Of a DNA stretch of 10,777 nucleotides, positions 1 to 9,732 are shown piece after piece. Location of the stretch: the UHGV virus genome UHGV-0117503. The stretch is one strand, 5' to 3'. The stretch comes from a virus. Numbering within the stretch: position 1 is the first letter of the stretch; every line of letters starts with the position of its first letter. The notes beneath the pieces were generated by a model that was not told the DNA's origin, did no database searches, and saw only the letters and a program-made list of their open reading frames with translations. Made by a program: the position numbers and the translations under genes.

Positions 1-262
1 TTCGCTCCGCTGCAACTGCAGGAAACCTACGACAACAGCGGGCTGAACATCGGATTCCCGGACGCCGAACTGACGGGCGTTCTGATCTGCGTGGACGTCA
101 CCGAAGCGGTCGTCGACGAAGCGATCGGGCACAGGGCCAACCTGATCGTGTCGCATCACCCGCTGCTATTCCACCCGTTACGCCGGATCGTCGGGGCCGA
201 CGCTTCGCAACGGATCGCCGCGCGCTGCCTGATCGCCGGCATCTCGCTCTATGCCGCGCACA
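1..262 (+). CDS. Nif3-family (YbgI/YqfO-like) protein, internal fragment; open at the window start and lacking its own C-terminus
   Basis: Frame 1 is open from nt 1 and reads ...YDNSGLNIGFPDAELTGVLICVDVTEAVVDEAIGHRANLIVSHHPLLFHPLRRIV...ISLYAAHTN, matching the Nif3 signature from memory (WDNxGL, HHPLIF, LYxAHTNLD). My own count gives about 65% G+C over nt 1-240, unlike the rest of the window. The end coordinate is approximate. Confidence 0.5.
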
Positions 263-523
263 CCAATCAGGCTCTTGCAAACTTCGCAGGTTTCGTTGTG
301 GCTGTGAGCTTTAGCTTCTTCGCGAATGCAAAATTCACATTCAAAGCTTCGACTACAACGATGCGCTACATGTTATATGTAGGATTCATGGGAACACTGA
401 GTGCTACTGTTGGATGGGCTGCCGATAAATGTGCACTTCCTCACTCTTGTCACCTTCTCCGCCATCAGCCTGGTTTGCGGTTTCGTCTATTCAAAGTTCA
501 TTGTCTTTAGGGATGCGAAATGA
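263..523 (+). pseudogene. gtrA: gtrA-like bactoprenol-glucose flippase remnant: N-terminus replaced and body frameshifted
   Basis: From about nt 263 the same frame reads QALANFAGFVVAVSFSFFANAKFTFKASTTTMRYMLYVGFMGTLSATVGWAADKCALP, which matches GtrA as I recall it. The expected C-terminus [26 protein letters not shown] is in the adjacent frame (open 401-523), ending at TGA 521-523 in an ATGA overlap with the gtrB start. The frame switch lies at about nt 439-445. Confidence 0.55.
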
Positions 524-1431
524 AGATATCTCTTGTAGTTCCTGTCTTCAATGAAGAAGAAGCAATACCAATTTTTTATAAAACGGTACGTGAATTCGAA
601 GAGTTGAAGCCATATGAAGTGGAAATTGTTTTCATAAATGACGGAAGCAAAGACTCTACGGAGTCAATTATTAATGCTCTGGCTGTTTCAGATCCCCTAG
701 TTGTTCCGCTGTCATTTACACGCAACTTTGGTAAAGAACCAGCATTGTTTGCAGGATTAGACCATGCAACAGGTGATGCCGTTATTCCTATTGATGTTGA
801 CCTGCAAGACCCGATTGAGGTTATTCCTCATCTTATTGAAAAGTGGCAGGCAGGCGCTGATATGGTGCTTGCTAAACGTTCGGATCGTTCAACCGATGGA
901 AAATTAAAACGAAAAACAGCTGAGTGGTTCTACAAACTTCACAATAAAATAAGTAATCCAAAGATCGAGGACAATGTTGGCGACTTTAGACTAATGTCCA
1001 GACATGTTGTTGAGAATATTAAACTTCTACCAGAACGAAATCTATTCATGAAAGGAGTTCTAAGCTGGGTTGGTGGAGAAATAAGTATTGTTGAGTATGC
1101 CAGAGCGGAACGCATTGCGGGGACGACTAAATTTAATGGCTGGAAATTATGGAACTTAGCTCTTGAGGGTATAACTGGTTTTTCAACATTTCCTCTACGA
1201 ATGTGGACATATATAGGATTATTTGTTGCAACAATATCATTCATGTACGGAGCATGGATGATATTGGATAAAATTTTATTTGGAAACAACGTACCAGGTT
1301 ATCCCTCACTTCTTGTTTCTATTCTTTTTCTTGGTGGGATTCAATTGATTGGCATTGGAGTCCTAGGTGAATATATAGGAAGAATCTATATTGAAACCAA
1401 AAAAAGACCTAGATACCTTATAAAAAAATAG
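520..1431 (+). CDS. gtrB: GtrB, bactoprenol glucosyltransferase (GT2 family)
   Basis: The 303-aa ORF starts [29 protein letters not shown], contains DGSKD and a DVDLQD-type GT2 motif, and ends in two C-terminal transmembrane helices and ...IETKKRP. It is near-identical over its length to enterobacterial prophage GtrB/YfdH as I remember it. Confidence 0.93.
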
Positions 1432-1432
1432 G

Positions 1433-2893
1433 ATGCATATGAACTTTTTAATTAGAGAAAGCGAAAAGAAAGCATTTGCTTTATTATTTGCAACCGCATT
1501 GCTTTTTATATATCCATTAATGCATTATGGTATATATTTTCGAGACGATCTACACAGATCTGTAACTGGATACTATGGATGGAGCGGCCTTGGTAGACCA
1601 CTCGCAGATATAGTTATAAAAGTAGCATCAGCAAGCGGAGATAGACTATTAGATATTTTCCCGTATAACTTAATACTATCTTGCGCCATGCTATCACTAG
1701 CATGTATACATATAGCTAGATTATTACAACATCTAAACATAAAGAAGCCAACGTTTTGTGCCTCATTGTTTATCTTTAATCCATTTTTTCTACAAAATCT
1801 AGCTTATAGATTTGACTCCACAGGAATGTCTTTAGCACTTCTTCTTTGTGCGCTTTCATACACCTACCAAAATAACAATATTTATATATCATTGGTAATT
1901 AAAATTTCACTTGGTGTCGCAACACTTTCACTGTATCAACCATGTGCAAATCTATTCATTGGGTTGCTATCAATCGAGCTCTCTGCATTATTCATTACTA
2001 ACAACACAAACAACAAAAAATTATTTTTAACATTAATCAAAAAAGCTGGAGTATTTTTATCATTCTACTCTATTTACTTTCTAATCGTAGCAAGAATATG
2101 GGGTTCAGAAAACAATAGATCTGAAATCGTCAAGTTAAATACAGATGGATTAAATCATATTTATAATACATTCCAAAGACTCAATACCTTGCTTGAGTCA
2201 TTTTTTAATGGTCCAGTTATTTTTTATTTTATACCACCGGTTATTTTATTATTTATTTTTATTATCCTTACCGTTTACAAAAATAGAAACAACTCGTTGG
2301 CAACCAAGATGCTTTTATTATTGCTATCATTGAGCTCGGCATATATATCTCTTCTTGGGCCGACATTTATTCTTGTTGATGCGCCCGTATTTCCAAGAAC
2401 GCTGGTAAGCTTCTCAATCCTCTTTGTTTTATTTTCCATGTATATAATTTCACTTTGTGATAAGCTAAAATGCATTGCATTAATACCTGTAGTAACAGTA
2501 ATAGCATTTAGCTCTCAATTTGCCAACGCACTGAACACCCAAAGAGAACATGAGAACTTTGTTTTAAATATGGTTGCATATGATTTAATGAATATAAATG
2601 GAATACAAAAAATTAAGACAGTGGGCAAGATAAGATTCAGTAAAAGAGCTGAATTACTCACAAATGATAAGCCTCTAATAAGCCAATCTATAAGCAGGGC
2701 TACTGAATTTCTTGCAACTTATCAAATGGTTAACAAGGGCTTGAAAGGTGTAAGCGATGGTTATGGCATAGAAAAATCCAATAAGGAAGAGTTGGACTCA
2801 TTCAAAAGCAATGGTGTTAAACCATATGTTGATAACAATGAATACTCAATATATGAAAATAATGGCGTTGCAATTGTAGTTTTTAAGGGATAA
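1433..2893 (+). CDS. GtrC-family serotype-specific O-antigen glucosyltransferase (polytopic membrane protein); type not identifiable by eye
   Basis: The 486-aa ORF lies immediately after gtrB (gtrB stop 1429-1431, ATG 1433; an alternative ATG at 1439 has AGGA 5 nt upstream). It is very AT-rich, with many hydrophobic segments and a hydrophilic C-terminal domain, which is the usual third gene of a gtr cassette. Confidence 0.75.
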   Translation: MHMNFLIRESEKKAFALLFATALLFIYPLMHYGIYFRDDLHRSVTGYYGWSGLGRPLADIVIKVASASGDRLLDIFPYNLILSCAMLSLACIHIARLLQHLNIKKPTFCASLFIFNPFFLQNLAYRFDSTGMSLALLLCALSYTYQNNNIYISLVIKISLGVATLSLYQPCANLFIGLLSIELSALFITNNTNNKKLFLTLIKKAGVFLSFYSIYFLIVARIWGSENNRSEIVKLNTDGLNHIYNTFQRLNTLLESFFNGPVIFYFIPPVILLFIFIILTVYKNRNNSLATKMLLLLLSLSSAYISLLGPTFILVDAPVFPRTLVSFSILFVLFSMYIISLCDKLKCIALIPVVTVIAFSSQFANALNTQREHENFVLNMVAYDLMNINGIQKIKTVGKIRFSKRAELLTNDKPLISQSISRATEFLATYQMVNKGLKGVSDGYGIEKSNKEELDSFKSNGVKPYVDNNEYSIYENNGVAIVVFKG

Positions 2894-2920
2894 TACGCAA
2901 CTAAAATAGTTCTGCATTGC

Positions 2921-2960
2921 TCATTAAGACCAATCAATCACATCAGATTGGTCTTAATGA
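2921..2960. terminator. Perfect 15-bp inverted repeat (hairpin) between the convergent gtrC-type and tailspike genes
   Basis: tcattaagaccaatc (2921-2935) pairs with gattggtcttaatga (2946-2960) around a 10-nt loop, 28 nt after the gtrC stop and 21 nt before the tailspike stop. There is no clear U-tract on either side, so intrinsic-terminator function is uncertain. Confidence 0.4.
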
Positions 2961-2980
2961 AATTACGCCGCGACCAGTTA

Positions 2981-4957
2981 TCACCTCCATTTAAACCGAG
3001 GTGAATATTCCCCGTTATTGAATCTTCCTATACTTACCTGTATTGTCGCCGGAGAATCAGAAAGAACCTCGGTGCTATGCAATGATAGTATAAGTGATGA
3101 TGATTCTATATCTCTATCTGCTTCGACCACATAACCATAATCTCGTTCTGGCTCTGTAAAATAAGCTATTGGTTTTCCGTTTGCTGCAATGGTAAATCTT
3201 CCACCAACAAATTTACCCTTGAACATAACATGTATTTTTATCCGAGTAACTCCCTTCGGTAAAACACAACCAGCATTTAATGATGCTGTAGAGTTTATAT
3301 TGAAATCTTTCCTTATCACTGTGTATGGAATTGCATATAAAGCTTCAGCAAAGTTTGATTGAGACTGATACTCTGTCGCAGCAATAGAGCTCCCCCCCAT
3401 AATTCTAAATCCTCCAACACCGGAGAACACACTATTAAAAGCATCCACAGCTTTCGTAAAGTTACCAATACAAACAGGTGTTTCTGCATCATTAATGAAT
3501 TGTTCCCTTGAATACAATGTCACACTGTTTATATATGTACTTTTATAACCACCAATATCATCAGGGCTTAAAAATCCATACCCATTGGAACCATCAGATA
3601 CGCCATTAAATTCTGTATAATAGCTACAAAATTCGTTAGATGATCTTGGAGATGTCTCAATCCATCCAAATCCAAAATTTCTCTCTGACTGAATATTGCT
3701 ATAAGTACACCCACTACTCCGCGTTATAAGGCCTGCGCCACTATAGCGCGTCGCTGAGTCTGGTGATGGGTCAAAATCACCATTGCGACCATTTGTGTGT
3801 GTACGTATACGTAAAAAACTAACAGAATTTACAGCCAAATCATCAGTTTCTCCTTGAGTAGGATAACCAATAACAACTCCGCGCCCATAGTTATCATGTG
3901 CAACTATTGTTCCAAATGAACAGAACCAAGACTGATAAACTGATATGCCGACGACACGAGCATTTATGGCTGTAATATTGTCGCAATGTGACTCATTTGT
4001 AAAATATCTAAAATAAAATCCATTTGTCGCCTTATTATCACAATCAGAAATTATATTTGTAATTCTTACTGAGCTTACATCTTCAGTTGGTGTAACTCCA
4101 ATTGGAGAGCGAGAGCATCTAATAACAGCCTTTTTAATTGCAACATCCCCAATCCATTTAATGGTTGTAGCAAATCTATTACCTGCTCGCAGAGAATTTC
4201 CATATCCTCTCATATCCAAGCCATTTGGAGGCACAAACTCATCTGTAATTCCAATAACACCAGCTGGAAGGATTAAAGGTAGTTTATTATCAGATGCGAA
4301 TTTAGCAGCACTGGTTAACTCATTAATTGAATCTTTTTCTCCATTTAAATTAACCCCCCACCATTTTAATAGAACTTCTCCATTGATATTTCGTTTCCAC
4401 CGCCTCCCAATTGCGTCAATAAGTATTGTTCCTCCATTATCTTGAGATGTAGAATCATACTTATCAATTTCAAATATTCCATTTCCACCATCAAATATAT
4501 TTCGCACACCATATACATAGCATCTATGCATATTCCCGCTATAATTTCTAATATCTTCGTAATTTGCTCCACCTATATATCCCAAACCGAAGCTTTGAGA
4601 TAATTGAACTTTAAATTGATCAGGTTCATACTTCAGCACATTCGGAAAATAAAACTGCTGAGCACCGTATGCATCATAAACAGCCATAGAATGGCCTTGC
4701 ACAGTTACGAACTTGGCAATCTGTCCGTTATATACCGGGTAACCAGCAGCGTTAATGATGATTGGTTGCGAAACAGGAACGTGAGAGCCGTCTTCGTTCT
4801 CCATATAAACCTGAATCTGGTTTTCTGGATTTACGGGGTCCGTGTCAATTTTACCGATATAAATTTTGCCATTGGCTACCGCTTTAAAAGAACGAGCCAT
4901 AGTGAAGAGTTGCGAAGGCATGCTTACCACAACATTGGCATTTATTGAATCTGTCAT
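2981..4957 (-). CDS. Tailspike protein: P22/Sf6-like head-binding N-terminal domain with a divergent receptor-binding (probable beta-helix depolymerase) domain
   Basis: The N-terminus [51 protein letters not shown]...[27 protein letters not shown] matches the conserved P22/Sf6 tailspike N-terminal domain from memory. The start is set at the internal ATG (4957..4955) that gives MTD..., not the upstream start at 5002 in the ORF track. The remaining ~540 aa are rich in G/N/S/T/I/V. Confidence 0.88.
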
Positions 4958-4982
4958 TTTAATTTCTCTATATGTTAAGCAA

Positions 4983-5016
4983 GCAATATTCATTGCTAGC
5001 ATGTTTTTTGTATAAT
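4983..5016 (+). promoter_or_regulatory. Putative sigma70 promoter for the HNH gene, in the divergent tailspike/HNH intergenic region
   Basis: A consensus TATAAT sits at 5011-5016 directly preceded by TTG, with a small palindrome GCAAT-ATTC-ATTGC at 4983-4996 upstream. No convincing -35 element at 17-bp spacing. Confidence 0.3.
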
Positions 5017-5044
5017 GAGTGAACTTTATTTAAAGGTGGTTAAC

Positions 5045-5554
5045 ATGAACTGGAACGAAGTATTCGTATTAAAAGACGATGGACTCCTGTACTGGAGTGA
5101 CCAATATCTTTCAAGACCCAAAATGTTCAATATTTCTAAAGAAAAGCCTACAGGACATATATTCAAGGACAAGAACAGGAAAACATCTTATATAATTATC
5201 AGGTATCAAGATAAAATATACGCCGCCCATAGGATAATATGGGAAATGTTTTATGGTGAAATCCCTTCAGGAATGCAAATTGACCATAAAGATGGTAATG
5301 GGTTAAATAATTCAATAGACAACCTGCGTCTAGTTAGTCTCGGTGAAAACCTAAAAAACAAATCTAAATACACAAACAATACATCTGGGTGCGCAGGTGT
5401 TTCATGGCATAAGACCCATAAAAAGTGGGTGGCATATATTAGCGACGCAGGGAAGCGCATTAATCTCGGATACTTTAAGTGTCTCGATGATGCAATTGCT
5501 GTAAGGCGTGATGCTGAAAAGACCTATGGTTATCATGAGAATCATGGTAGGTGA
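5045..5554 (+). CDS. HNH endonuclease with a C-terminal AP2-like DNA-binding domain (homing-endonuclease-like)
   Basis: Motif IDHKDGNGLNNSIDNLRLVS is HNH-like, followed by GVSWHKTHKKWVAYIS...KRINLGYFKCLDDAIAVRRDAEKTYG, which is AP2-like. The start is set at ATG 5045, which has AAGGTGG 5 nt upstream; the ORF track begins at 5015. Confidence 0.8.
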   Translation: MNWNEVFVLKDDGLLYWSDQYLSRPKMFNISKEKPTGHIFKDKNRKTSYIIIRYQDKIYAAHRIIWEMFYGEIPSGMQIDHKDGNGLNNSIDNLRLVSLGENLKNKSKYTNNTSGCAGVSWHKTHKKWVAYISDAGKRINLGYFKCLDDAIAVRRDAEKTYGYHENHGR

Positions 5555-5966: not shown

Positions 5967-6044
5967 ATGCAAAGAGATATGCTGAATATTGCGTTCTACA
6001 TATTTGGTTTTTGCACGTTCCTGGTGTTTGCGAAGCTATTCTGA
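5967..6044 (+). CDS. Hypothetical 25-aa hydrophobic peptide (possible single-pass membrane protein)
   Basis: GGAGGA at 5958-5963 is followed by ATG at 5967. The ORF encodes MQRDMLNIAFYIFGFCTFLVFAKLF and stops at TGA 6042-6044, 21 nt after mnt on the same strand. It is absent from the ORF track because of its size; it is unproven. Confidence 0.25.
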   Translation: MQRDMLNIAFYIFGFCTFLVFAKLF

Positions 6045-7199
6045 CAACGCATCAGACTTGGCACCTTGAGTCAGGGCGTTAATGGCCTTTTGCGCCTGCT
6101 GCATGGCTTTCTCAAACGCTGTTGATCCGCGTGGGGTGTTTGCCATTCGGAGCATTGCATTTCTGAATGGCTCGCTCTCATAGGCGCGAGTAAGAAGTCC
6201 GTAGCTTACCGCTGCGCCAGTTGTCGCCGGGTTCATTGCCGTCCCATATCCGATAATGAACGGGATGGTTTGCTGCCCTGTTGGTGTTGTTACTGCTGCT
6301 TTTGCAGCCTGCTGCGTGGATTGCAGGTAGTTTTTCAATCCTTTCAGATAAGCGGCTTCATGACCTTTAAATGTGATGCCAGTCTGGTTTTGCAGGATAT
6401 TAAGCTGCCGAAGGAACTGGTCAGGGGATCCGCCAGATTTCTCCATCGCCTTTCCAATGATGCCATTGCGCATTTGCGCCCTGCCAACACGACCAACTGA
6501 GTTATACAGCGTCTTAATTTCAGATTTGTTCTTGCTGAATAGCATGTTGTTGACAACTTCCGGCGTCAGGTCGCCTTTCATGAGAACATTCTTCAGCCTG
6601 GTATTCTTTAGTTTCGCCGCTTCGTCAGCGTAGACGGCATTGGCCTGCTGATATTTACGAAGAGTATCATTGCCAAGATTCTGACCAATGGCACCATTGA
6701 TATCGTCGGTCATCGCCTTGTAAACTCGCTGAATGGCAGCATCGGAACGGTTTGGTAACACTGGTCGCTCACCCTTCACGTCCATTCTGAACTGGCTGCG
6801 CAGATCGCTTAATTGCTTCAAATCCAGATTGACCGGACCATCAGGACCAGCATTGCGAACAAGCTCATCACGATATGACTGAAGTTTTGAAATAGTCTCG
6901 TTATCAGCCACCTTACCAAGCTTCTGCAGATTAGATATCTCAGTATCAATCTGCTGAATTGCTCGCGCAGGCTGAATGTTTACTCCAGCCATAGCATTCT
7001 GAACCTGCTCCAGTCGATTACCGGCGGCACGCCGAATTCCTGATGTTTTCGCTTTAAGGCTGTCAATAACAACTGCCGGATCGTACTCGCCGAATTTATC
7101 AGCAAATCTCTGCACCAACTGACTTCTCGCTTCCTGTTGCGTTGCTCTCATTCCGCTTGTGCCAGCCAGGGGGATATTTTCTGCTGTGGTCTGCGCCAT
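6036..7199 (-). CDS. Virion ejection/internal protein, probably the C-terminal part of the lytic-transglycosylase protein encoded upstream (387-aa ORF)
   Basis: Long ORF in the late-gene orientation. Its frame is open upstream of the ATG at 7199 as far as a stop at 7334..7332 and reads protein-like there (GAIAPEAQQAIRFAEREGVPLHTTDLLQPTSRVGK). It overlaps the upstream ORF by 52 nt. Confidence 0.6.
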   Translation of the reverse strand: MAQTTAENIPLAGTSGMRATQQEARSQLVQRFADKFGEYDPAVVIDSLKAKTSGIRRAAGNRLEQVQNAMAGVNIQPARAIQQIDTEISNLQKLGKVADNETISKLQSYRDELVRNAGPDGPVNLDLKQLSDLRSQFRMDVKGERPVLPNRSDAAIQRVYKAMTDDINGAIGQNLGNDTLRKYQQANAVYADEAAKLKNTRLKNVLMKGDLTPEVVNNMLFSKNKSEIKTLYNSVGRVGRAQMRNGIIGKAMEKSGGSPDQFLRQLNILQNQTGITFKGHEAAYLKGLKNYLQSTQQAAKAAVTTPTGQQTIPFIIGYGTAMNPATTGAAVSYGLLTRAYESEPFRNAMLRMANTPRGSTAFEKAMQQAQKAINALTQGAKSDALSE

Positions 7200-8413
7200 T
7201 TTCCCGACGCGGGAAGTAGGCTGTAACAGGTCTGTGGTGTGCAGAGGAACTCCTTCACGCTCTGCAAATCTGATAGCCTGCTGCGCTTCTGGCGCAATAG
7301 CACCACGAACGCCACGATACGTCCGGCAGCGTTAATAGCACCGCCAGCCAACACACCAACGCCTAAATCGGTGGCGAGTGCTTCCGCATCATCTTTCGCA
7401 CTATTTGCAGCAAGTGATCCAACTGCGTTTTCAGCGAGAAGGCGAGTTGCCCCCTGAGCAATTCGACCAGCAAGTGTTGGTGCCTGTGTTGCCGCTCTCT
7501 CAACGCCAGCAGGAGTGAGGTAAGGCAACGCTTCAGCAAATACCCTTCCCTCTGTCGTTTGTGGAGTCAGCGCGCCTTGCTGAAGGCCAAAGTCCTGCTC
7601 TAATCCCTGCGTTGTTACTCGTGGCGCTGGTTGATATGTACCATCGCCAATGCCGAGTTTACCGCCAGCCCAAGCCGCCGCGCTTGTTACAGCATCAGTG
7701 AGTTCAGCAGGTATGTTCGCTACGTTGATTCCTGCCTGTAGTAAGCCGCGCCCGGTTTCAGCAAGTCCATTACCAAGGTCAGACATTATTCCGCCTTGTT
7801 GCTGAACAGGTTTCGGTGCGACAGAACTTACGGGTTGAGGTGGCTGCTGACTGGCTGCCTGCTGCTCAATCTGAGCAAATGGATTATTTGGGTCTGACTG
7901 CACACCTGATGCCGATACTTGTTCGGATGACTGTACTTCCAGTTGTGCAAACGGGTTGTTAGGGTCTTGCTGAGGATGTACCTTTGCAGAGGTGGCGCGC
8001 TGTTCGACTGTTGAGTCTGTCACCGGGTCACCCGCCCATTGAGCAAAGCGATCATCAACGTAACCGCGGCCTTCAGGTCCTGGCGTATATTCACCACGCT
8101 TTGCCTTCATAACGTTGCCGGGACCGTCGTGATAAGCCTGAAGAGCGTCACGCCAGTTACCAAACTGCTGGTACATCTTTGCCAGATAGCGCGCGCCAGC
8201 GTCAGCCTGATATTCGGGGTTTTGCATTTGCTCATCGGTATAACCCATATCACGCCATGTCCCAGGCATGACCTGAGTCAATCCTACAGCCCCGGCGGAG
8301 CTTACTGCGGCAGGGTTGTAAGAAGACTCCTTGGCACCCAGTGCAGTCATCAACCCTTCTGGCACACCGTAACGTGCGCCAGCCTGCTCTAACAAATCAC
8401 GGTAATTAGCCAT
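7148..8413 (-). CDS. Virion ejection/internal protein with an N-terminal lytic transglycosylase (SLT) domain; the last ~55 codons of this frame are probably out of frame
   Basis: N-terminal GAKESSYNPAAVSSAGAVGLTQVMPGTW...YLAKMY is a classic SLT catalytic-region signature. A Q/P-rich linker carries a duplicated DPNNPFAQ motif. The C-terminal stretch of this frame (RIVAFVVLLRQKRSRLSDLQSVKEFLCTPQTCYSLLPASGKWRRPQQ...) looks like non-coding translation. Confidence 0.75.
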   Translation of the reverse strand: MANYRDLLEQAGARYGVPEGLMTALGAKESSYNPAAVSSAGAVGLTQVMPGTWRDMGYTDEQMQNPEYQADAGARYLAKMYQQFGNWRDALQAYHDGPGNVMKAKRGEYTPGPEGRGYVDDRFAQWAGDPVTDSTVEQRATSAKVHPQQDPNNPFAQLEVQSSEQVSASGVQSDPNNPFAQIEQQAASQQPPQPVSSVAPKPVQQQGGIMSDLGNGLAETGRGLLQAGINVANIPAELTDAVTSAAAWAGGKLGIGDGTYQPAPRVTTQGLEQDFGLQQGALTPQTTEGRVFAEALPYLTPAGVERAATQAPTLAGRIAQGATRLLAENAVGSLAANSAKDDAEALATDLGVGVLAGGAINAAGRIVAFVVLLRQKRSRLSDLQSVKEFLCTPQTCYSLLPASGKWRRPQQKISPWLAQAE

Positions 8414-9211
8414 TTACTGCCCCAAAGATGGAAGATATCCGTAGCGATTAATGAAGTCGATTGACAGCTCGGGGTGCTGCTTCAGGTAATCTATAGAAGC
8501 CTGAGGCGCTTCCACTCGCTTGATACCGTTTTGCTGAACGTACTTACCAACCGCCTCATTACGCTTCTGGTTGAGCGTGTTCAGGATGACGCCAGCGTTG
8601 CGACGAAAGGACTCCTCGCTCTGCGAGTTCTGCAGCGAACCAACAGCCTGGTCGAGCTTTTTGCCCTCGGCATCAGAAAGTGCGCCCATGCCTCGCATGG
8701 CCTGAACCGCTGTCAGGTATGCTTGTGATTTAAAGGTATCAAGTCGTGCCTGAGTGTCTGCAGCCTGTGAGCCTGGAACGTTGGGGATTACTCCACGTAA
8801 GCCTGTAATGCTCTTAAGTGAAGGAGAACTAACGATATCGTTCAGAGTGAACATGCTGGTTGTGAGGGTGTTGATGCCGTCTTTGTAGCCATCATTTAGC
8901 GCTTGCTGCTTCTGCTGCAACTGCTGGTTGTTGGCTGCTATGCGGCTCTGTATTTCCTGGCGCTTCAGGTCGTTAGTTTCTGCTGATAGCATCCGGTCAA
9001 GGCGCTTATTTTCGTTGTTAATGCGGTTTGTTTCTGCGTCCAGATTAATGCGCTGCTGACCTAAATTCGCCTGGATATCTTGCCCGCGCATTGTGATTGC
9101 CTGATTCCGAGCGGCGGTTTGCGAATCCAGATCCTGACCGCGCATGGTAACCTGGCGACCCTGCATTTTATCCTGTAGGTCAAAGTATTTTTCGGGTCCG
9201 AGACTGTTCAT
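8414..9211 (-). CDS. Virion ejection/internal protein (265 aa) with a Q-rich coiled-coil-like region
   Basis: Its start ATG overlaps the stop of the upstream gene (ATGA at 9208-9211), and its stop TAA (8416..8414) directly abuts the ATG of the SLT protein. The content RIAANNQQLQQKQQALNDGYKDG is typical of phage internal proteins. It sits between the gene-7 and gene-16 positions of P22. Confidence 0.7.
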   Translation of the reverse strand: MNSLGPEKYFDLQDKMQGRQVTMRGQDLDSQTAARNQAITMRGQDIQANLGQQRINLDAETNRINNENKRLDRMLSAETNDLKRQEIQSRIAANNQQLQQKQQALNDGYKDGINTLTTSMFTLNDIVSSPSLKSITGLRGVIPNVPGSQAADTQARLDTFKSQAYLTAVQAMRGMGALSDAEGKKLDQAVGSLQNSQSEESFRRNAGVILNTLNQKRNEAVGKYVQQNGIKRVEAPQASIDYLKQHPELSIDFINRYGYLPSLGQ

Positions 9212-9732
9212 CCCAGGTGATCGAACTGCCGCGGGTTCTGTTGGTACATCTGAGCGACGTCCTGAGGATTAACGCCAACACGAGCTAACTCACCGGCGTT
9301 GTTTTGCAGCCATGATTGCATTGCTTCTGGAGACGATGACGCAAGGCGTGCGCCAGCCGCTAAGGTGCCGATAGAATTACGCTGATCTTCATCAATGAAT
9401 CCCATGCCTTTACGAACGGATTCAATCTGGTCTGGATATTGAGTAGCCAACTGACGCAAAGCACTGCGATCACCAGACGCATAAGCATTAGCGTACGCCT
9501 GCTGAAATTCTTTCTGCCGCTGAGCCTGCTTTTCCTGCTGAAACACCCCTGCAATACCTGAAAGGCCTTGCAAAGCAGTCAGCCCAACATTGTTAGCGCC
9601 TGAACGCTCAATATCATTGTTCTGCCTGATAAGCTGAAGCGTATTGCCGATGTCATTTACGCTCGGAGCGTTTGAGTTGACGCCGCCGATACCAGCCAAC
9701 AATCCGCCGTTTGTTCCTTGCCAAGTAGCCAT
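9208..9732 (-). CDS. Virion ejection/internal protein (174 aa)
   Basis: ATG at 9732..9730 has AAGGGG upstream. The product is G/A/Q/N-rich, and the gene is tightly coupled to its neighbours on both sides. Confidence 0.7.
   Translation of the reverse strand: MATWQGTNGGLLAGIGGVNSNAPSVNDIGNTLQLIRQNNDIERSGANNVGLTALQGLSGIAGVFQQEKQAQRQKEFQQAYANAYASGDRSALRQLATQYPDQIESVRKGMGFIDEDQRNSIGTLAAGARLASSSPEAMQSWLQNNAGELARVGVNPQDVAQMYQQNPRQFDHLG

Follow-up and report, generated by a model that had tools for sequence, protein, structure and literature searches.

The in-frame join of a Nif3-family fragment to gtrA at the start of the analysed window (the whole stretch of DNA under study, 10,777 nt) is best explained, with a probability that we put at roughly 0.9, as a misassembly made in silico between two genomes, in which the Nif3 gene of an Alistipes-like bacterium was run into the gtrA gene of an Escherichia coli prophage. 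The Nif3-GtrA composite is almost certainly not a biological feature.

Source of the window

Exact look-up of the 139-aa ORF at 91..510 and of the 486-aa gtrC-type ORF gave no match. The forms made by the gene caller were a partial 169-aa product (1..510) and a 484-aa product, and the 169-aa form led to the source contig. In the gene-position index, this fusion product (partial, nt 1-507) is on record for one contig from one sample, and its sequence was not found by exact look-up in a collection of 15 billion proteins. Since the 169-aa product is recorded in the NODE_4094 contig alone, the window is the entire contig ena:ERZ651849:NODE_4094_length_10777_cov_2.537773 of an ENA metagenome assembly, which has a k-mer coverage of about 2.5x. 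The NODE_length_cov name is in the SPAdes format, and from the contig name alone we infer the assembler and its k list.

The Nif3-gtrA junction

Frame 1 is open throughout nt 1-510 with no stop, and the Nif3 fragment and the gtrA part are read in the same frame across the join. In the product of nt 1-510, residues 1-89 matched DUF34_NIF3 (Pfam PF01784; E = 1.8e-28, 100.3 bits against a cut-off of 23.4) over profile positions 13-101 of 256, and residues 82-130 matched GtrA_DPMS_TM (Pfam PF04138; 28.6 bits, cut-off 26.1) over profile positions 20-74 of 117. The G+C content was 0.648 in nt 1-247, 0.459 in nt 269-523 and 0.436 in the remainder of the window, and in the sliding profile values of 0.62-0.67 gave way to about 0.45 within nt 200-300. 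These results agree with the first-pass annotation, which had described an in-frame Nif3/GtrA composite with a break in G+C content and had named the sliding profile as a check on it. The features around the join are as follows.

1..247, + strand: Nif3 (DUF34) fragment, codons 13 to about 94 of 263 (PF01784), at the contig terminus and apparently specific to an uncultured Alistipes-like (Rikenellaceae) gut bacterium
248..268, + strand: shared 21-mer TCTATGCCGCGCACACCAATC, identical in both parents and holding the join
269..523, + strand: 3' three-quarters of gtrA (yfdG-type) of a P22-like E. coli prophage, identical to ECCHD184 and Z1323HEC0300 except for an 8-bp gap, with the GtrA Pfam match
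520..1431, + strand: intact gtrB (yfdH-type bactoprenol glucosyltransferase; Glycos_transf_2, E = 2.5e-31), within the 99.2% prophage alignment and outside the probable artefact
1433..2893, + strand: gene for a gtrC-type serotype-specific glucosyltransferase (Glucos_trans_II, E = 2.1e-27), in the same gene order as in E. coli

The window is identical to the Nif3 parent through nt 268 and, from nt 248 on, to E. coli gtrA, which places the putative crossover somewhere within the 21-nt common run. The donor Nif3 departs from the window at nt 269 (T versus A), and E. coli gtrA departs from it at nt 247 (A versus C) and upstream. The run, which encodes (L/I)YAAHTN, is the only exact match of at least 16 nt between 102 kb of donor loci and the phage part of the window; the two have no 22-mer in common. 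The position 262/263, at which the switch had been placed, falls inside the run, and the guess of a microhomology join at an AHTN motif is substantiated by the 21 identical nucleotides. The suggestion that AHTN is common to both families holds for the present gtrA and Nif3 alleles, which have YAAHTN, but not for the GtrA family, as SfII has AHTS and SPN9CC has MHTH at this place.

Neither domain is complete in the window. A complete Nif3 domain, with its two metal-binding halves and some 250 residues, is absent; the part that is present corresponds to about one-third of the protein (263 aa in the donor) and breaks off at HTN within the HTNLD motif. An intact four-TM GtrA of about 120 aa is likewise absent: the first 79 nt of gtrA (about 27 codons) are missing at the join, the N-terminal 27 residues are replaced, and about 27-30 C-terminal residues are out of frame. 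The ORF 91..510 is, as had been noted, a Nif3/GtrA composite; however, the displacement of its last 27 or so residues by an 8-bp deletion had been overlooked.

The in-frame ORF, and nothing else, speaks for a natural Nif3-GtrA fusion, or for a naturally adjacent pair in a high-GC host that gained the gtr cluster. A GtrA domain occurs in none of the retrieved Nif3 homologues, all of which have the Nif3 domain. In the window, the Nif3 part ends in mid-domain at profile position 101, the GtrA part is frameshifted and lacks its beginning, and the gtr part has the base composition of E. coli. The natural fusion and the high-GC host were rejected because each half breaks off inside its domain and the gtr half has 99% identity to E. 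coli; the probability of this reading is close to negligible.

Parent of the Nif3 side

We searched for the donor in metagenome contigs with a wobble-degenerate DNA pattern made from nt 199-248. The pattern matched 17 contigs (L082-L098), several of which were labelled as human gut metagenome; because these donor-carrying contigs are so labelled, the sample of the window is presumably also from human gut. One contig (L091) has 100% identity to nt 1-268, and fifteen further human gut metagenome contigs have 98.5-99.6% and L083 has 97.8% identity (over nt 1-271). All of the contigs but L083 were compared across the junction, where 16 of 16 match the window through nt 268, diverge at nt 269 and continue as a normal 263-aa Nif3 (...HTNLDSADGGMSF... 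or ...YAAHTNLDSADGGMSF...); the full-length donor ORF is L085:3572-4363.

At the protein level, residues 1-89 have 99-100% identity to Nif3 proteins from gut metagenomes, and the cluster of the donor Nif3 at 99% identity consists of ENA metagenomes only. The outcome that the first-pass annotation had named as refuting, a match of nt 1-262 to GtrA homologues, did not occur: this part matched Nif3. The named relatives, all of them at 69% identity or less, are from Alistipes or Rikenellaceae, and among the matches listed for GTDB species representatives there was only Alistipes, with 75-78% amino acid identity (88-aa fragment). Because the named relatives and the listed GTDB matches are all of this affiliation, the donor appears, on sequence similarity, to be an uncultured Alistipes-like member of Bacteroidales.

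The donor recurs in the human gut, on contigs that reach 272 kb, and may represent a species close to Alistipes that has no named genome. A 243-aa protein (P0055), which sits on an ENA contig of 1,135 nt, has 100% identity to the donor Nif3 along 76% of the query length and bears PF00793 (DAHP synthetase) as an extra domain; possibly it, too, is a chimera or a frameshifted product of assembly, again from this organism.

Parent of the prophage side

In a megablast search of 5,426 complete E. coli genomes with nt 1-600, 679 genomes gave matches, none of which covered 80% of the query. All of the 15 matches listed among the 679 start at nt 248, and none of the 15 covers nt 1-247. In the alignment with ECCHD184, nt 248-600 have no mismatch to gtrA/gtrB and a single 8-bp gap at 442/443. 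Nt 248-4959 have 99.2% identity to the prophage of E. coli Z1323HEC0300, and the remaining segments of the window have 95-97% identity to this strain and another. Beyond the join, the window is a P22-like prophage with gtrA, gtrB, the gtrC-type gene, a tailspike gene, an HNH gene and arc/mnt, together with homologues of gp16, gp20 and gp7. The two E. coli genomes examined for gene order (ECCHD184 and Z1323HEC0300) both have tRNA-Arg and intS before gtrA, and the prophage in the sample presumably had this ordinary intS-gtrA arrangement.

The HNH endonuclease ORF (5015..5554, + strand), which lies between the tailspike gene and the arc/mnt-like gene, is found in E. coli 23CRST042 (L101) and is missing from the otherwise 99%-identical prophage of Z1323HEC0300 (L100); the ORF resembles a free-standing mobile HNH gene. 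The segment 7802-9232 has no alignment to the Z1323HEC0300 prophage and about 97% identity to 23CRST042, a difference that is ordinary mosaicism of the ejection-protein genes of P22-like phages.

Small deletions in the prophage part

Relative to E. coli gtrA, the window lacks 8 bp at nt 442/443 (TCCAATTG or an equivalent placement). The deletion shifts the frame, and the called ORF stops at 510; the native stop is at 521-523 and overlaps the ATG of gtrB. Among the 516 E. coli genomes whose matches cover most of nt 395-495, none reaches 95% identity, and the 8 extra bases are present in all ten genomes listed out of the 516.

Other genes of the prophage part are also interrupted. At about nt 7319, 16 bp of a minus-strand gene are missing relative to two E. 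coli prophages (L100 and L101), which splits the gene for a lytic transglycosylase/P22 gp16-like protein of about 797 aa (2394 nt in L101) into the ORFs 6036..7199 and 7148..8413 (- strand). Relative to L101, the loss of 1 bp from a C run at about 9211 and of 12 bp at about 9222 splits the gene for a gp20-like DNA ejection protein (1320 nt in L101) into 8414..9211 and 9208..9732 (- strand), and there is a 12-bp in-frame insertion at about 9526-9537. The number of frameshifted genes is three within 10.5 kb, at 2.5x coverage.

Collisions in the assembly graph were considered as the source of these deletions and rejected, since there is no repeat of about 20 nt at their edges. Their source is probably the reads or the DNA, and they would reflect decay of the prophage or, at this very low coverage, errors in the reads. 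In both cases, the ORFs on this contig are not to be taken at face value.

Occurrence of the junction in other sequences

The first-pass annotation had asked whether both pieces occur in any single genome. The join had no counterpart in the 679 E. coli genomes carrying the same gtrA, in the 16 donor contigs compared over this region or in the IMG/VR contigs, and no match to the gtrA side was found at the donor loci. The recurrence in independent genomes or samples that a fusion or a recombination scar would lead one to expect was, accordingly, not seen. Of the three readings that had been offered, the assembly chimera stands, whereas the recombination scar and the transfer into a high-GC host have no support, the join having been found in no other genome or contig among those searched.

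These searches bear directly on a physical junction, in which a chromosome fragment of an Alistipes-like bacterium (Bacteroidota) would have been joined by illegitimate microhomology recombination, over 21 nt, to a decaying P22-like E. coli prophage at the end near int; in a variant of this reading, foreign DNA could have been captured beside gtrA, replacing int and attP. Such an event would fit a join that is in frame and lies within the identical run, and the several frameshifting deletions of the prophage part are consistent with decay. However, in addition to the absence of the join from the sequences searched and the single sample that yields its product, each side is 100% identical to its parent right to the join, the foreign DNA amounts to only 268 nt at the end of a contig with 2.5x coverage, and the transfer of a housekeeping-gene fragment between phyla would have no obvious route or selection. 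We therefore regard a physical junction as very improbable.

The foreign part being a 268-nt terminal segment on so thinly covered a contig, the proposal that gtrB and gtrC are expressed by read-through from the Nif3 gene is not sustained. Like the proposed loss of the native gtr promoter, it concerns a molecule that in all likelihood was never present as DNA.

Origin of the junction

The misassembly that we favour would require that a low-abundance Alistipes-like bacterium and an E. coli with a P22-like prophage at argW were present in one sample. The Nif3 and gtrA genes coincide by chance in 21 bases, with YAAHTN written in the same codons in both, and in a de Bruijn graph at k = 21 both paths would cross one node. 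If reads were missing from E. coli upstream of this node (intS to the 5' end of gtrA) and from the Alistipes-like genome downstream of it, which is plausible at 2.5x, the node would look unbranched, and the assembler would run from Nif3 into gtrA and emit the two as one. The contig made at k = 21 would then carry the join through the larger k stages. In SPAdes and metaSPAdes the smallest default k is 21, and the contigs of each stage feed the next. The two parents, their 21-nt overlap, the origin of the contig in an assembly, its low coverage, the terminal place of the Nif3 piece and the uniqueness of the join are observed; the exact route through the graph, the k list and the read gaps are those that we infer for this contig.

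The properties of the contig are consistent with such an origin. The window is a product of de novo assembly from a mixed community, each side has near-100% identity to a different organism up to the breakpoint, the junction is missing from independent data, and the parents belong to different phyla, one being a Nif3 of the Alistipes/Rikenellaceae type and the other a P22-like enterobacterial prophage. The exact repeat of 21 nt is as long as the k expected from the SPAdes defaults. By simple arithmetic (2 x 3e6 x 5e6 / 4^21), about 7 chance 21-mers are expected to be common to a 3-Mb and a 5-Mb genome, so that such collisions should be routine. Chimeric contigs that metagenome assemblers make via shared k-mers, especially at low abundance, have been documented (PMC7299287), and chimeric metagenome contigs are treated as a documented problem also in the DeepMAsED preprint (10.1101/763813). 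The 21-nt overlap fits k = 21 without proving it, because real recombination within 248-268 would yield an identical sequence. A counter-point is that the small deletions of the contig are not normally made by a de Bruijn graph, and some of its oddities come from the reads or the DNA.

The deletions, which must have existed in the reads, also favour to some extent an in vitro chimera, that is, a template switch (PCR-mediated recombination) at 248-268 while the library was amplified. A Nif3 strand whose extension had stopped in the 21-nt run would have annealed to gtrA and been extended there, and the assembler would have joined the chimeric reads faithfully. The 21-nt identity is long enough for priming, and a single chimeric molecule could dominate at 2.5x. 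This route, however, needs a rare molecule to have been sampled exactly at the junction, whereas a collision in the graph takes nothing unusual and is to be expected wherever a run of at least k is shared; moreover, the assembler accounts better for an overlap exactly equal to the minimum k. We consider the template switch unlikely, and retain the misassembly as the preferred explanation of the join.

Significance

The join is of significance mainly for quality control. Taken at face value, the contig would suggest a Nif3-GtrA fusion, a high-GC or Bacteroidales phage host, or a transfer between phyla, and the 169-aa fusion "protein" has already been recorded in a public gene-position index. 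The contig can serve as a worked example of how one coincidental 21-mer between unrelated genomes at low coverage leads to an in-frame chimeric ORF. A physical junction, if true, would show directly that DNA is captured across phyla by microhomology in the gut; there is nothing in support of such a junction.

Comparison with known gene systems

As an assembly product, the window resembles the inter-genome (interspecies) translocation misassembly, which is a category of metaQUAST (PMC7299287; 10.1101/763813), in that it comes from a short-read metagenome and has unrelated sides that are each essentially identical to a parent, with an exact repeat of k-mer length, low coverage and a short foreign piece at the end. 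It differs in the cause, which is usually a conserved gene (rRNA) or strain-level similarity and is here a coincidental run of 21 nt.

With regard to the Nif3 side, residues 1-89 match PF01784 as does the Nif3/DUF34 protein (Nif3-like dinuclear metal centre hexameric protein) of Alistipes/Rikenellaceae, although the window holds only about one-third of that protein. On the other side, nt 248-2893 are the same cluster as gtrABC of the P22-like/Sf-type serotype-converting prophages at tRNA-Arg (argW), which have the order intS-gtrA(yfdG)-gtrB(yfdH)-gtrC, with 99% identity to E. coli prophages, and the tailspike, arc/mnt and ejection-protein genes follow as in E. coli. In contrast to these prophages, the 79 nt at the 5' end of gtrA and the upstream intS/attL are replaced here by the Nif3 fragment, and the gtrA of the window has the 8-bp frameshifting deletion.
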